NCBI GenBank assembly: GCA_009774145.1
Contig: VSND01000010.1
Location: forward strand, 14,335-78,334
Reading direction: 5' to 3'
DNA: 64,000 nucleotides
DNA from: Lachnospiraceae bacterium
Lineage (GTDB): Bacteria > Bacillota > Clostridia > Lachnospirales > Lachnospiraceae
Shown here: in pieces, positions 10,347 to 59,791 of the stretch
Layout of the letters: every line of letters begins with the position of its first letter
How positions within the stretch are numbered: the first letter of the stretch is position 1
Translations under genes and position numbers: made by a program
The notes under the pieces: generated by a model
What the model was told of the DNA's origin: nothing
What the model saw: only the letters and a program-made list of their open reading frames with translations
The model's database searches: none

Positions 10347-10450
10347 ATATCATGTTCCTTTCCTGTCTGAATAGAACACTTCCATCTTTCCTTTACACTT
10401 TCTCCATACTCGATTTCCACAGTACACGAACCGGTGACTGCCAGACATAT

Positions 10451-10480
10451 AAAAAGGCTCCGGAAACCGTTTCCGAAGCC
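10451..10480 (-). terminator. Intrinsic terminator after tRNA-Trp
   Basis: The minus strand reads GGCTTCGGAAAC-G-GTTTCCGGAGCC followed by TTTTT. Confidence 0.65.
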
Positions 10481-10484
10481 CGAA

Positions 10485-10557
10485 CAGGGACAGAAGGACT
10501 CGAACCCTCGACATTTGGTTTTGGAGACCAACGTTCTACCGACTGAACTATATCCCT
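10485..10557 (-). tRNA. trnW: tRNA-Trp (anticodon CCA)
   Basis: Hand-folded cloverleaf: acceptor AGGGATA/TGTCCCT, D-arm GTTC..GAAC, anticodon stem TTGGT/ACCAA with loop CTCCAAA, T-arm GAGGG-TTCGAGT-CCTTC. 73 nt, with no encoded CCA. Confidence 0.9.
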
Positions 10558-55338: not shown

Positions 55339-56241
55339 TTAAGTCTTCTGATACTGTTTCAGGGCTTCCACATAGATTTCACCAAGTCTGGACAACTCCC
55401 GGTCTTTATTCAGAATATATCCGATCCTCATCATTTCATCCTCATAAAGCGGAACGGAAATAATCGCATCTCCATGAAGGTATCTGGGAAAAATACCGCT
55501 TGATATCGTATAACCGTCCAGTCCGATCATAAAGTTTACAATGGCGGCGCGGTCACTGATCCTGATGCTCTTCTCTGCGGCCTCGCTGCTGAACAGTTCT
55601 TCTGCAAAATTAGAAGATTCATACGCCCCCTGGACAAAATTCAGCCTTGGATACGGTTTCAGATCTTCCAGCCGGATCTTCTCCTGCTCCGCCAGCGGAT
55701 GGCCTTTTCGTAAAAACACATGGGGAGCCGCAGTAAACAGTTCATAAAATTCCAGACCATATTCTTCAAACGTCTTTCTCAGTACCTGTTCATTGGTTCT
55801 GCCAAGATAGAGAATTCCAAGATCACTGAACCGGTTTCTGACGTCCATAATAATCTGATGCGTCTGTGTCTCATTCAGAATAAACTCATACCGTTCCTGC
55901 CCGAACTGCCTGACCAGTTCCACAAAAGCATTGGCGGCAAATGTATAATGCTGTGTGGAGATGCAGAACCTCTGCTTTTCCGGCCGATGCTCAATATACC
56001 GTGACTCCAGAAGTTCCATCTGCTGCACGACCTGCCTGGCATATCCCAGAAATTCCATGCCCTCCGCTGTCAGCGCAACGCCTGCCCGACAGCGGTGAAA
56101 AATCGTGATTCCTGCTTCATGCTCCACTTCCTTGACCGCTCCGGAAAGGCTCGGCTGTGAAAGGAACAGTTCTTTTGCCGCTTCTGTAATAGAACCCTTT
56201 TCCGCTATGGTTATCATATATTTCAGCTGCTGTAATGTCAT
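55339..56241 (-). CDS. LysR-family transcriptional regulator
   Basis: Trimmed to the ATG at 56241 (GGAGGAG RBS). wHTH: LQQLKYMITIAEKGSITEAAKELFLSQPSLS. Confidence 0.9.
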   Translation of the reverse strand: MTLQQLKYMITIAEKGSITEAAKELFLSQPSLSGAVKEVEHEAGITIFHRCRAGVALTAEGMEFLGYARQVVQQMELLESRYIEHRPEKQRFCISTQHYTFAANAFVELVRQFGQERYEFILNETQTHQIIMDVRNRFSDLGILYLGRTNEQVLRKTFEEYGLEFYELFTAAPHVFLRKGHPLAEQEKIRLEDLKPYPRLNFVQGAYESSNFAEELFSSEAAEKSIRISDRAAIVNFMIGLDGYTISSGIFPRYLHGDAIISVPLYEDEMMRIGYILNKDRELSRLGEIYVEALKQYQKT

Positions 56242-56375
56242 ATCCGCTCCTCCAGTCATGTTCCTTTTCCGTTATTCTTTTTCTGCATTTTTCTCCTTGC
56301 TTCTCAGCAGAAACTCCTGAACGTTTTTCAGATCCTCTTCGCGCAGAAGATAATCTATGTATCTGGCGTTTAAAT

Positions 56376-56590
56376 ATGTTCGATGTTTCCATTGATACAA
56401 ACAGAAATCTGCTCAGCAGCATGCTGTATACCATAAAATCACTCTGCAATTCAGTTGCCCATAACAATATGTTTTTTGATACCAGATTCAAAGACAGAAA
56501 AATCAGCCCTGTACTTAAAAAGTGGATGGAAAAAGAAACAGGTATACAAAATAATACCTTATATTCTCTGATTGACTACATAATAACTGT
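56376..56590 (+). pseudogene. Abi_2 (AbiD/AbiF)-like C-terminal fragment
   Basis: ..IKSLCNSVAHNNMFFD.. resembles the LRNxxAHHxRxW core of Abi_2 proteins. The N-terminal ~150-200 aa are missing. The 3' boundary is uncertain, as it runs into the DUF262 gene's 3' end. Confidence 0.3.
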
Positions 56591-57442
56591 ATGCTGCTTA
56601 CTGAAACGCATATCCTCATTATCTTTTGCAAGCCAGCAGATTTTCTGTAAAAACTCAGAATTTTCAAATTCCTTATCCTTTATCATCTGCGGATAGAAAT
56701 CTGGCTTCACAGCTAAATGACAGAAATAATCCACAACCTTCCGAAGCATATTTCCGCCATGTGCTGTGTCCGATGCCATTTTTGACATTACAAAATCTGA
56801 TTGACTAAGCGGTGTTCCCTTAGAATTAATTCTTATGAATATTTCTGTTACTTCGTCAATATCAAGAAAGTGATCCAGTTCTATTACACCAATCTGTCGG
56901 TTTACAACGCCCTTCAGCTTAAGCAAAGTTTCTGAAAGCTCATCCAAATCAACACCTTCATTTGTCCGTGCATATTCATTCTCGAAGGCTCTCTGTCTGA
57001 AATCCGGCTTGAATAATTCAGAAATATCCGGAATCCACTTTTTGTCCTTGAGATGTGATGCATCTTGAACTGCAAACCTCTTGGTAGGATCATCTGTCAG
57101 AGGATTAAAGGCAATTTTAATTCTTCCCCGGTTAAAATCCTCATCAAGCACTTCCAGTCCGGAAACAGCTGCCATAAGTGCAGTAATTCTCTGCTGTCCA
57201 TCGATAAGAACATGTTTTCCGTTTGCCATAGTGCCATCTTTGGTCTGGACATCCGGATTCTTCCATGTAATTATGTATCCGGTTGGATAGCCATTATACA
57301 GAGAATCTATCAGGTCTCTTACCTGACTTCTCTTCCATACAAACTGCCGCTGAATCTCGGGAATTACAAACTGCCCCGCTTCTATCAGACCAAGAACAGC
57401 ACTGACCGAATATTGCATTAAAGTAAATTTCTCTCCAACCAT
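56576..57442 (-). CDS. DUF262 (ParB-like, GmrSD N-terminal domain) protein, apparently lacking a C-terminal nuclease domain
   Basis: FVIPEIQRQFVW and LIDGQQRITAL motifs. 288 aa, with no DUF1524/HNH-like region. Confidence 0.8.
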   Translation of the reverse strand: MVGEKFTLMQYSVSAVLGLIEAGQFVIPEIQRQFVWKRSQVRDLIDSLYNGYPTGYIITWKNPDVQTKDGTMANGKHVLIDGQQRITALMAAVSGLEVLDEDFNRGRIKIAFNPLTDDPTKRFAVQDASHLKDKKWIPDISELFKPDFRQRAFENEYARTNEGVDLDELSETLLKLKGVVNRQIGVIELDHFLDIDEVTEIFIRINSKGTPLSQSDFVMSKMASDTAHGGNMLRKVVDYFCHLAVKPDFYPQMIKDKEFENSEFLQKICWLAKDNEDMRFSKQHTVIM

Positions 57443-57654
57443 AGTCTTGTCACCTCAACTTTATTTTTTATACCTCAGCAGATACCTGATACTGAACAGA
57501 TTCTGCTGCATCATCTGTTCTCACGCAACCAGTGATAGAAATACAGAAGCAATTCAGGATTCTCCGAATTTATTCGGACCAGTTTACGCCTTCCATTACC
57601 TTTATGATCGCCTGTTTCATCTTATCATGCAAATAAGCTTCATTCAGCTTACTT

Positions 57655-58407
57655 TTACTGTATTTGAGATACTGGTCCTGTGTGTATTCCACCAGCAGTG
57701 CTGTAAAAAACCGCTCCCGGCTTATGGTGCATTAACTGATAGAGTTCGTTCATTTCAGAACCAATTGCCGCACCATCTGTTATGACCAGAGCCGGTTCCT
57801 GGTTCAGATTACTCATAACTGTTTTCAAATTGGGCTTGCCGCCTGCGCTGCTGCAGGCAATCTCTCTTTCATTACAGACGGCACGAAAAAATTCATAGCC
57901 GGAATGGGAATCTTCCACCACAACAGCCAACGGCTTCTTCCTTCCACAAAACTCTTCCGTACTGTAAATATGATACAGTTCATTATAAGTCCGTTTCAGA
58001 TCATGATACCTGCCTGAAGTATGGATGCCATAAATCTCTTCCACCGAGTATGGCAGGTTGGGAAGATCCTCCCTCGTAATGATTACAAAATAATCATCTG
58101 AAGCCTTCACTGCAGCAGCAAATTCCTGTGACTTTATAAATTTGTTCTCCTCATCCAGAAAAATAATCTCTTCATGGATATTGGGCAGCACGAGATTCCA
58201 GTCCTGTCCGCCAAGTGTTCTGCATGGGCGTTCACAGAAAATCTCTACACCCGAACCGTCCCCAAAAGCGGCCGCCTGCTCCAGCAGTTCGATCAGCTTC
58301 GTCTTCCCTGTCGCACTGTCTCCACGGATAATTGTAATATTTCGCCGGATATCCAGTTCATAGCGGAGCCTGTTATTCTGTACGATAATATGATATTTCC
58401 CTTTCAT
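57655..58407 (-). CDS. Compact P-loop NTPase fused to a TOPRIM/DUF4435-like domain (possibly frameshifted; restored frame ends at 57570)
   Basis: Walker A GDSATGKT, IIFLDEE, then VVVEDSHSGYEFF and LVITDGAAIG. Its AAGGAG RBS lies inside the upstream gene. An A6 run at 57705-57710 precedes a 44-codon open alternative frame. Confidence 0.7.
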   Translation of the reverse strand: MKGKYHIIVQNNRLRYELDIRRNITIIRGDSATGKTKLIELLEQAAAFGDGSGVEIFCERPCRTLGGQDWNLVLPNIHEEIIFLDEENKFIKSQEFAAAVKASDDYFVIITREDLPNLPYSVEEIYGIHTSGRYHDLKRTYNELYHIYSTEEFCGRKKPLAVVVEDSHSGYEFFRAVCNEREIACSSAGGKPNLKTVMSNLNQEPALVITDGAAIGSEMNELYQLMHHKPGAVFYSTAGGIHTGPVSQIQ

Positions 58408-58411
58408 AATA

Positions 58412-58861
58412 TCAACGCTCCTTTATCTTCAGTGCTTCTTCCAGATACTCTCCATAGCTGTGTACCGCTGTTCCTGTATTAACGATGACAGCTTCAAAAT
58501 CCGGAACAGCACTAAAATCCATCACATGATGCAGATTGATGGTCAAATCCTTCTTCCTGCCAAGCTCTGCAATCCATTTCGCACAGTTATCCCCACAGGC
58601 CGAGGCGTTGAAGATCCTTCCGCTCTCATCAAAAGCCATCAGAATCAGTGTTTTGACACCGCCGGAAATCTCTTTCGTAGAAATCGGTCCAAGCACAGGA
58701 CCCTGAATCAGATGCGGAGCAACTACATCCAAACGGTCAATCTCTTTGATCATGGCAACTGTCAAAGGCTCCGTGATCCACTCATCTTCATATCGATTGT
58801 CAAAATATGTCGGAGGATGGTAAACTGCGTTTTCCACTTCTCCAAATATGATTTTCAGCAT
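58412..58861 (-). CDS. DUF4869-like protein
   Basis: Trimmed to the ATG at 58861 (GGAGGA RBS). MLKIIFGEVENAVYHPPTYFDNRYEDEWI and ASACGDNCAKW match the recalled DUF4869 family. Confidence 0.6.
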   Translation of the reverse strand: MLKIIFGEVENAVYHPPTYFDNRYEDEWITEPLTVAMIKEIDRLDVVAPHLIQGPVLGPISTKEISGGVKTLILMAFDESGRIFNASACGDNCAKWIAELGRKKDLTINLHHVMDFSAVPDFEAVIVNTGTAVHSYGEYLEEALKIKER

Positions 58862-59527
58862 TGCTTTTTCCTCCTTCCAGACCATAGATACGATATCGGA
58901 TTTCTGTGCATACAGAATTTTGGTCCATGTGCCGCTTCCTGTATTTCTCAGATCATCTACCAGATTCGTATTCTGATATTCCGTATAACACAGGAGCAAA
59001 AGAAACGCGAGAAAGATCATGCATTCGCATCATATGCTTTTCCCCATTCGCACAGCGCCCCACAACCGGTTCCGGCGCAGCACCCGCTTCGCTCAGCGAA
59101 TATTCAGTCCCGGCTCCATCGGACACTGTCCGTCCGCTGCACTTTCTCCATATTTGACTGTTTCCTTCTGTGAATTTCAGCAGGCAATTTTTCGTGGTTT
59201 GCAGAACCGCATCTTCTGTGTCTGCACCTGAAACTTTTCCCATAATGCACCCCAAACTTCCCACAAACAAAAGGAACCGGCTTAATTTCCCGACCGCCGG
59301 GAATTTCATATATGCTTGAACCGATCTGCATTCCATGTTATACTTTCCCCATATCAGATCATTTGATGGTGAGATTCATGTGTAAAAATAAAAAAAGAAG
59401 AAACAAAGCACGGCTCCATGCAAAGCCAGTATAAGCGACACCTGCATGGAGCAGTATTCCGTCGCTGAACAGAACTGCTGGCTTTGCCGCCTGATTTTAT
59501 AAACGAAATCAAGGAGGAAGCCCGCAT

Positions 59528-59791
59528 ATGAAATACATCAATGCTGCTGCCATTCTCCCGGACGCACTGGTCAAAGAACTGCAGAAATATGTGCAGGCAG
59601 GATATATCTATGTTCCAGCCAGCGACGGGCAGCGCAGGACATGGGGAGAACGGTCCGGCTATCGAAAGGAACTTCAGAAGCGTAACGAAAAAATCCTTGC
59701 AGAGTATCAACAGGGCGCATCGGCAGACGATCTTGCCGACCGTTACCACCTTTCCGTATATGCCATCAGAAAAATCATCTATCAGAAATGA
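59528..59791 (+). CDS. CD3324-family small DNA-binding-like protein
   Basis: MKYINAAAILPDALVKELQKYVQAGYIYVP... and a C-terminal HTH-like LADRYHLSVYAIRKII. Family recalled. Confidence 0.6.
   Translation: MKYINAAAILPDALVKELQKYVQAGYIYVPASDGQRRTWGERSGYRKELQKRNEKILAEYQQGASADDLADRYHLSVYAIRKIIYQK

Follow-up and report, generated by a model that had tools for sequence, protein, structure and literature searches.

A decayed copy of a two-gene DUF4869 cassette of gut Clostridia and its possible relation to OLD- and PARIS-like conflict systems

Introduction

Machines that combine an ATP-binding cassette (ABC) ATPase with a Toprim domain are recurrent in prokaryotic immunity, with Old, Gabija, PARIS, retron-associated OLD and Wadjet as examples, and the way in which ATP gates the nuclease is still being worked out. 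In OLD proteins, a complete ABC ATPase that contains a dimerisation insert is combined with Toprim in about 520–600 amino acids (aa) (PMC10568477). PARIS illustrates that the ATPase and nuclease functions are separable onto two polypeptides (PMC11464382, PMC10568477). Here, we describe a pair of adjacent minus-strand genes in a 64,000-nucleotide stretch of a Lachnospiraceae genome (contig VSND01000010.1, positions 14,335 to 78,334), which we call the window. Gene 1 encodes a protein of the DUF4869 family and gene 2 a protein with a P-loop domain and an acidic α/β domain. An earlier note, made from the letters of the window, had proposed the pair as a candidate conflict module. Our analysis indicates that the window carries a degenerate version of a self-contained cassette of two genes, which is widespread among gut Clostridia.

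Results

An obligate two-gene module

Both open reading frames (ORFs) were confirmed in the window, where the locus has the following parts:

58412..58861, minus strand: gene 1, intact, DUF4869 protein of 149 aa
58870..58875, minus strand: ribosome-binding site of gene 1, AGGAGG, 8 nt 5' of the gene 1 ATG (read from the sequence)
58418..58423, minus strand: ribosome-binding site of gene 2, AAGGAG, within the final codons of gene 1 (read from the sequence)
57655..58407, minus strand: 5' part of gene 2, a 250-aa ORF with the P-loop domain and strands β1–β3 of the acidic α/β domain
57719/57718, minus strand: deletion junction in gene 2, CATAAGCC / GGGAGCGG
57570..57731, minus strand: 3' remnant of gene 2 in another frame, ERFFTALLVEYTQDQYLKYSKSKLNEAYLHDKMKQAIIKVMEGVNWSE followed by a stop (match to the family profile, E 1.6e-21)

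A spacer of 4 nt (TGA-tatt-ATG) lies between the stop codon of gene 1 and the start of gene 2 at 58407. The ORF pair, this spacing and the AAGGAG inside the 3' end of gene 1 had been read correctly in the earlier note, and the motifs that it quoted (GDSATGKT, IIFLDEE, VVVEDSHSGYEFF, LVITDGAAIG and ISGGVKTLILMAFDES) were all found in the sequence. Nearly all DUF4869 relatives (most of those listed) are 145–149 aa long and begin with ML[KN]I; together with the placement of AGGAGG, this supports the predicted 149-aa start of gene 1 over a 202-aa ORF that begins at 59020 and would then be an over-extension. When 57300..59600 was scanned for promoters and terminators, the promoter-like matches were close to the level of shuffled sequence and nothing interpretable emerged.

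Relatives of gene 2 were counted in a collection of 185,579 species with one genome per species, and were present in at least 597 places. Most hosts were Lachnospiraceae and other Clostridia, with a few Selenomonas, Phascolarctobacterium and Atopobiaceae, and some genomes contained two copies of the cassette. We examined 84 loci, 81 of which were testable for the partner gene. A DUF4869 ORF adjoined gene 2 on the same strand in all 81, and in the other three the contig ended exactly where DUF4869 would be. The DUF4869 gene was directly upstream of gene 2 in 80 of the 81 loci, with a spacing of 2–5 nt in most of those measured (a rough count). Pairwise identities of the two proteins were correlated (r 0.78), a value reached by none of 999 Mantel permutations. 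The two genes co-diversify and form an obligate, tightly coupled two-gene module; co-occurrence of the two families in other genomes, a point raised in the earlier note, is evident from this adjacency and correlation. No conserved third gene was seen, as the 145 immediate neighbors matched 165 Pfam families, each of them no more than three times.

Gene 2 was intact in 77 of 79 loci (the exceptions being L011 and L012), which indicates that the module is normally maintained by selection. Independent lesions of gene 2 were an in-frame deletion (P0099), a frameshift after PESF (P0112) and the breaks in L011 and L012. Truncated DUF4869 proteins were absent among the 240 closest clusters; DUF4869 is the smaller mutational target.

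Variant arrangements were also observed. One locus (L006, 5998..7504) was the only one with the reversed order, in which gene 2 is followed directly downstream by DUF4869, and it contained an extra C-terminal DUF4869 fragment 3 kb downstream (10399..10485). Another example involved an uncultured Blautia contig (L028, 2001..2920), in which tandem DUF4869 paralogues, one from each of two DUF4869 clades, lie upstream of a single gene 2. In Roseburia hominis (CP159990.1; L001, 9428..9997), DUF4869 contains an insertion of about 40 aa after TINLHHVMDF, which is a Cys-containing repeat (CQACPSEGPVDLHLG CQACLSEDPVDFHLG), and the public gene call missed this gene. NCBI names some gene 2 relatives (P0012, P0024, P0042, P0072 and P0110) "translation initiation factor 2", the other label in use being "hypothetical protein". 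None of the family models searched backs the former name, which appears to be a propagated mis-annotation.

A 131-bp deletion in gene 2 of the window

The earlier note had taken gene 2 for an intact protein of about 250–280 aa. However, homologs of gene 2 are 320–322 aa long, and a DNA alignment revealed a 131-nt gap in the window copy, at which each of the four closest intact relatives (L021, L005, L007 and L006) has exactly 131 nt. Since 131 is 3×44−1, the reading frame is shifted. Positions 1–234 of the family profile are read in the frame of 57658..58422 and positions 272–321 in another frame, at 57573..57731. Past the junction, the 250-aa ORF continues out of frame for 19 unrelated residues by our count, and the C-terminal 47 residues are encoded in the different frame and end at 57570.

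The 5' part retains GDSATGKT, IIFLDEE, VVVEDS, GGKP and VITDGAAIG. In the protein alignment, the lost segment comprises about 44 residues (KCYLPESFEW...YFSW), and with it the near-invariant PESFEW and SWE motifs were removed. The deletion takes out strand β4 of the C-terminal domain with P237, E238, S239, F240 and E241, as well as W274, all of which are invariant or nearly so. The same 250-aa allele was found beside the same 288-aa DUF262 gene in at least eight independent assemblies, several of them labelled mouse gut, and the protein cluster that matches the window gene 2 has 84 members. A sequencing or assembly error and a programmed frameshift were considered as causes of the short gene 2, but both were ruled out by the size of the gap (131 nt) and by the presence of one and the same allele in independent assemblies. 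Gene 2 of the window is a fixed deletion pseudogene, and the cassette is almost certainly non-functional here under every functional reading discussed below.

The DUF4869 protein

Gene 1 belongs to Pfam DUF4869 (PF16163), as the earlier note had proposed, with an E-value of 7.9e-49 (165.2 bits versus a cut-off of 28.9); its residues 13–141 match positions 1–127 of the 128-position profile. The window protein deviates from its relatives at two sites that are conserved in at least 98% of them (S44L and S54G), which may reflect relaxed constraint. The DUF4869 alignments contain no P-loop or Walker A motif. Across the two clades of the family, which are about 48% identical, three groups of residues are invariant: S66, G67, K70, T71 and L72 (SGG-KTL); F84, N85, S87, C89, G90, N92 and C93 (FNAS-CGDNC); and T107, I108, N109, L110 and H112 (TINL-H).

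The order of these motifs parallels that of an ABC head, i.e., signature, Walker-B strand, D-loop helix and H-loop strand, with no D-E at the Walker-B position. The earlier note had read MAFDES as a Walker-B-like motif; this candidate was discarded as a conserved feature, because the second clade has MKNERSK or IKNVPDK at this position. We aligned DUF4869 by hhalign with an ABC nucleotide-binding-domain profile built from ABC domains in the fetched loci. The alignment (P 0.0034) extended over 126 columns in register from signature to H-loop, and 3 of 200 column-shuffled controls scored as high (empirical p about 0.015). When the AlphaFold2 model was compared with PDB structures by Foldseek, about 31 of the 50 best matches were ABC-type heads, all with E >0.1, including SMC proteins (1xex_B among them), Rad50, cohesin, condensin, JetC, RecF, PtuA, ABCF proteins and transporters. 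The split ABC/SMC-like head proposed in the earlier note gains some support from the invariant SGG-KTL, which is absent from gene 2, from the in-register alignment and from the share of ABC-type heads among the fold matches, although no fold match was individually significant. It is equally possible that the two invariant Cys and H112 could form a metal site. A PDB sequence-profile search with the DUF4869 alignment returned nothing, and hhalign detected no relationship between DUF4869 and the gene 2 family.

The gene 2 protein

Conservation in gene 2 was assessed in an alignment of 88 cluster representatives, which are 32–55% identical to the reference. Eight residues are invariant among them: G34, K35, E86, R112, D166, D211, E241 and E275. 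The N-terminal domain (N-domain, residues 1 to about 150) contains the Walker A motif GDSATGKT with G34 and K35, the motif IxFIDE with E86 about 45 residues further on, and R112. By hhalign, this domain matched the same ABC profile with 96% probability (E 4.2e-9; reversed control 0.15), the match spanning the N-terminal β-hairpin, Walker A and the subsequent strands. In Pfam, AAA_23, AAA_29 and ABC_tran were matched in 52–56 of the 88 members, and AAA_22 matches were also located around the P-loop. PADLOC gave weak matches to the N-termini of LmuB, PtuA and GajA, and also to PbeC (E ≥5e-4), all of which were limited to the P-loop region.

No conserved signature motif (LSGGQ) was detected in the 88-member alignment, and the "LGG" of the window protein is not conserved. 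IxFIDE was placed on the Q-loop strand of ABC transporters by hhalign and on Walker B in alignments to Old and MgsA, and the strand at the H-loop position has the invariant R112 in place of His. Judged by its sequence, the N-domain is an ABC-type P-loop, a stripped-down core without the signature motif; the P-loop noted earlier is assigned to the ABC type by the profile match, and it is conserved, with G34 and K35 invariant. A PDB sequence-profile search with gene 2 yielded P-loop matches only, and Pfam, NCBIfam, PADLOC and PHROGs scans (full-length protein, the 88 members and 37 C-terminal domains) yielded generic P-loop matches or nothing.

The C-terminal domain (C-domain, about residues 155–322) was modelled by AlphaFold2 with a confidence score (pLDDT) of 70–94 as a β-α-β-α-β-α-β core followed by helices. 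E165/D166 are located at the end of β1, G190/K191 after β2, D211-G-A-A-x-G after β3 and P-E238-S-F-E241 after β4, with W274-E275 in a helix. In the model, this layout would fit a Toprim or a receiver-type metal-binding domain. The earlier note had described the segment as TOPRIM/DUF4435-like: an α/β domain with acidic residues at Toprim-like places is indeed present, but membership of a Toprim, DUF4435 or RloB family was not recovered by hidden Markov model (HMM), profile-profile or fold searches. Pfam DUF4435 was matched by 1 of the 37 C-domains, at a chance-level E-value of 0.03, and PADLOC found nothing relevant in these 37 sequences. A PDB profile search gave no Toprim match; its top match, at β1, was to a hybrid two-component protein (E 0.046). 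When PDB and BFVD were searched by Foldseek with the gene 2 model, nothing fell below E 0.01 and no Toprim below E 0.7; the poor model of the N-domain probably weakened this search.

Comparisons with P2 Old by hhalign, either as a single sequence or as a six-sequence alignment, were not significant for DUF4869 or for either domain of gene 2. For the C-domain the E-value was 0.12, and the Old profile was shallow (6 close sequences, IMG/VR having given close Old relatives only), so that a distant relationship is possible.

Genomic context

The following features surround the pair in the window:

56576..57442, minus strand: DUF262/GmrSD_N gene, 288 aa, in a stretch with a G+C (GC) content of 38.8%
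56235..56696, plus strand: Abi_2-like ORF, weak PADLOC AbiD match (E 2.9e-4, residues 52–113)
59528..59791, plus strand: CD3324-family gene (NCBIfam E 4.9e-32), with a weak Pfam Mor-like match

An AT-richer block around the pair, which had been judged by eye, was confirmed by computation: the GC content is 51.1% in the window and 45.2% in the gene pair (7th percentile of 1.2-kb windows), and that of the DUF262/Abi block is the minimum of the window. As for the neighbors named earlier, profile matches identified the LysR gene beside the pair (Pfam), the DUF262 gene (Pfam GmrSD_N/DUF262, E 4.7e-35) and the CD3324-type gene, whereas the Abi_2-like fragment was only weakly supported. The DUF262 protein has 288 aa versus 550–620 positions in the PADLOC HEC-05 and GmrSD-type profiles that it matched, and from its sequence looks truncated, without the C-terminal nuclease half; the identical 288-aa form recurs in other assemblies. 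The Abi_2-like ORF overlaps the 3' end of the DUF262 gene on the opposite strand and extends into the start of the LysR gene, and is probably a remnant at a rearrangement junction. With this remnant and the broken gene 2, the region looks like an islet of decaying defense genes. About 660 bp separate the pair from the divergently transcribed CD3324-family gene, which is not a recurrent neighbor of the cassette in other genomes.

Elsewhere, the neighborhood of the cassette differs in almost every genome and is often made up of housekeeping genes, for example those for tRNA synthetases and sugar metabolism. Three of the 145 immediate neighbors were integrases and three were type I restriction-modification specificity subunits; these numbers are above expectation, but the counts are small. 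The defense-island context described in the earlier note applies to this window, but not to other genomes, in which neighbors are mostly housekeeping genes and vary.

A scan of 2.9 million IMG/VR contigs gave a single locus, on a prophage contig (L103, 5592..15635), in which the pair directly follows an endolysin gene. This cassette is also downstream of a reverse-transcriptase gene that is apparently split or frameshifted. Two large ORFs after the cassette (1227 and 319 aa) had no PHROGs or NCBIfam match and may be further accessory or defense genes.

A strain-level difference was observed at a distance from the pair. The DegT/DnrJ/EryC1 aminotransferase gene is a 429-aa ORF in the window (53482..54771, minus strand), and in syntenic assemblies of the same lineage (L085, 12372..12650) it is a fragment of 71–92 aa between LysE and LytTR genes, which suggests a strain-level deletion of about 0.85 kb.

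Discussion

Proposed function and its alternatives

It is quite possible, if somewhat short of probable, that the intact cassette is an OLD/PARIS-like, ATP-controlled nuclease conflict system that acts in defense or abortive infection, a role that we infer for the pair from the features described above. DUF4869 (about 147 aa) would be what is left of an ABC/SMC-type ATPase after loss of all but its C-terminal lobe, which retains the signature-like SGG-KTL, and protein 2 (about 320 aa) would join a minimal Walker A/Walker B domain to an acidic four-stranded α/β domain, with acidic residues (ED, D and E-x-x-E) at strand ends and a WE motif in the following helix. The two proteins would form a complex. 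ATP would bind at the Walker A/B site of protein 2, to which DUF4869 may add its signature motif in trans, and nucleotide binding would gate a metal-dependent, Toprim-like nuclease domain. Such an arrangement would couple an ATPase sensor to a nuclease effector, as in the OLD, Gabija and PARIS conflict systems (PMC10568477, PMC11464382). In the window, the putative effector gene has lost 131 bp, which leaves the nuclease-like domain cut off and out of frame. Low GC content, variable context, patchy distribution, genomes with two copies, the prophage locus and recurrent lesions of gene 2 are consistent with a costly conflict gene.

Several observations weigh against this proposal. The canonical Toprim DxD is D-G-A in gene 2, where nearly all members have Ala for the second Asp. 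Assignment of the C-domain to Toprim is unproven, as the domain had no significant HMM, profile or fold match, and its best fold matches were CheY-like receiver domains, all with E ≥0.01. The AlphaFold2 models of the N-domain (pLDDT 30–50) and of DUF4869 (pLDDT 63) are of low confidence, and the link between DUF4869 and ABC ATPases is suggestive rather than established. Mostly housekeeping neighbors mean that there is no general defense-island context. Cassettes on mobile elements are rare: five uncultured fecal "Bacteriophage sp." contigs, three megaplasmids and the one IMG/VR locus. Conservation is high for defense genes, with DUF4869 being 76–89% identical among the closest 120 clusters. 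Finally, no named defense family matches, PADLOC v2.0.0 giving 0 for DUF4869 and P-loop noise for gene 2. That the pair corresponds to no known named system, as the earlier note had suggested, agrees with PADLOC v2.0.0, Pfam, NCBIfam, PHROGs and the literature, none of which names one, and a literature search for DUF4869 and PF16163 found no paper that mentions either.

Three other explanations were considered. We regard it as unlikely that the pair is a toxin-antitoxin-like addiction module, in which protein 2 would be an ATP-dependent toxin neutralised by DUF4869 and the cassette would persist selfishly. The compactness of the two-gene operon, its gene order (small before large) and its spacing of 2–5 nt would suit such a module, as would the patchy distribution and variable location, and in decayed copies (the window, L011, L012, P0099 and P0112) it is the large gene that is broken and DUF4869 that is intact. 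However, this asymmetry is weak evidence, because gene 2 is the larger mutational target. Antitoxins usually evolve faster, but here DUF4869 is the better conserved of the two proteins, with a mean pairwise identity of 0.59 versus 0.54, and Pfam, NCBIfam and PADLOC gave no match between it and a DNA-binding domain or a known antitoxin domain. The high conservation, the chromosomal location with frequent housekeeping neighbors, the near absence from phage and plasmid collections, and the SMC, Rad50 and RecF heads among the DUF4869 fold matches would instead point to a chromosomal role in DNA metabolism, i.e., a minimal Rad50/SbcC/RecF-like ATPase-nuclease for repair or recombination that is no conflict system. 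We consider this improbable, since synteny is not conserved and the location is different in nearly every genome, the pair occupies at least 597 places among 185,579 species and at times two per genome, its GC content is below that of the host flanks, and a decayed allele is fixed in this lineage.

The third alternative concerns the C-domain, which might be a receiver-like (CheY-fold) phospho- or metal-binding switch, making the pair an NTP-dependent regulatory module. Response-regulator receivers are the top fold matches of protein 2 (for example, 2qxy_B with probability 1.00, TM-score 0.53 and 77 columns), the top PDB sequence match is the hybrid two-component protein aligned at β1 (E 0.046), and β1 and β3 end in acidic residues (E-D and D, respectively), as they do in receiver domains. 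Nevertheless, we view this possibility as improbable too: all of these E-values are ≥0.01, the model has only four strands and lacks β5 and its lysine, and no kinase or output-domain partner is present among the neighbors. In addition, the extra invariant residues E238, E241 and E275 would be more in keeping with the metal site of a nuclease than with a phospho-acceptor pocket.

Significance

A more specific form of the proposed ATP-controlled nuclease system, which we regard as doubtful, is an asymmetric split ABC ATPase, in which DUF4869 would provide the signature in trans to a Walker A/B subunit fused to a Toprim-like nuclease, the whole representing a miniature OLD-like class of ATP-gated nucleases that would defend gut Clostridia against phages or plasmids. 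If true, this would be the smallest such machine, with about 470 residues in total and the signature on a separate 150-aa subunit, and a convenient system for dissecting the coupling of ATP to nuclease activity. It would also provide a function for DUF4869, a Pfam family that counts thousands of members in Clostridia of human and animal guts but has no literature, and would correct the "translation initiation factor 2" label of its partner. As the window copy is a pseudogene in a decaying low-GC islet, intact relatives are preferable for experiments.

Comparison with known systems

Neither protein could be assigned to PARIS, Gabija, Septu, Lamassu or any other system of PADLOC-DB v2.0.0, and searches of Pfam, NCBIfam and PADLOC linked neither to a known family of toxins or antitoxins. 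The module resembles type II toxin-antitoxin systems in having the small gene first, translational coupling, a patchy mobile distribution and a large gene that decays, but it differs from them in that DUF4869 has no DNA-binding antitoxin domain and is more conserved than its partner.

Another likeness is to SMC/Rad50-type ABC heads that are assembled from separate N- and C-terminal halves. DUF4869 shares with them the order of a signature-like SGG, a β-strand, a helix and an H-containing strand, and one of its fold matches is to the SMC head of P. furiosus, in structures of the C-terminal half alone (1xex_B and 1xew_Y). Gene 2 supplies an N-terminal β-hairpin and Walker A, like the N-terminal half of an SMC or Rad50 head. 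In contrast to these proteins, there is no coiled coil, the parts are on separate genes and DUF4869 has F-N-A-S instead of hhhhDE; gene 2 carries its own hhhhDE, and the structural matches all have E >0.1.

Like PARIS, with its AriA ABC ATPase and AriB DUF4435 Toprim nuclease, the present module is a two-gene system, here of an ATPase and a putative Toprim effector. However, its P-loop and its Toprim-like domain are fused, and the second protein, of 150 aa, has no P-loop. No PADLOC match to AriA or AriB was obtained with the proteins of the pair, and the difference from the AriA/AriB split to which the earlier note had drawn attention is borne out by this and by the fused architecture.

OLD proteins (P2 Old, Thermus scotoductus OLD and GajA) are similar to gene 2 in their domain order: an N-terminal ABC-type P-loop comes first, and in the C-terminal α/β domain that follows, β1 and β3 each end in conserved acidic residues. 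The segment LIFIDEPE...YQVIISTH of P2 Old can be superposed on ILFLDEEN...YFVIITRE of gene 2, from Walker B to the "H-loop strand", in an alignment that is not significant. An alignment to Old made with MAFFT --add conflicts in register with the topology-based one and was not used as evidence. Unlike OLD, gene 2 has only about 320 aa with an N-domain of about 150 aa, no complete ABC domain, no helical/signature subdomain and no dimerisation insert, an invariant Arg for the H-loop His and D-G-A for DxD, and neither profile nor fold comparisons gave a significant match between its C-domain and the Toprim domain of Old. It also has an obligate DUF4869 partner, whereas OLD proteins have none. Class 1 OLD genes, like this cassette in most genomes, are not found beside other defense genes (PMC10568477). 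As proposed here, the module would work like an OLD-family system, yet sequence, profile and fold comparisons do not place it in the OLD family, of which it may be a smaller two-gene counterpart.

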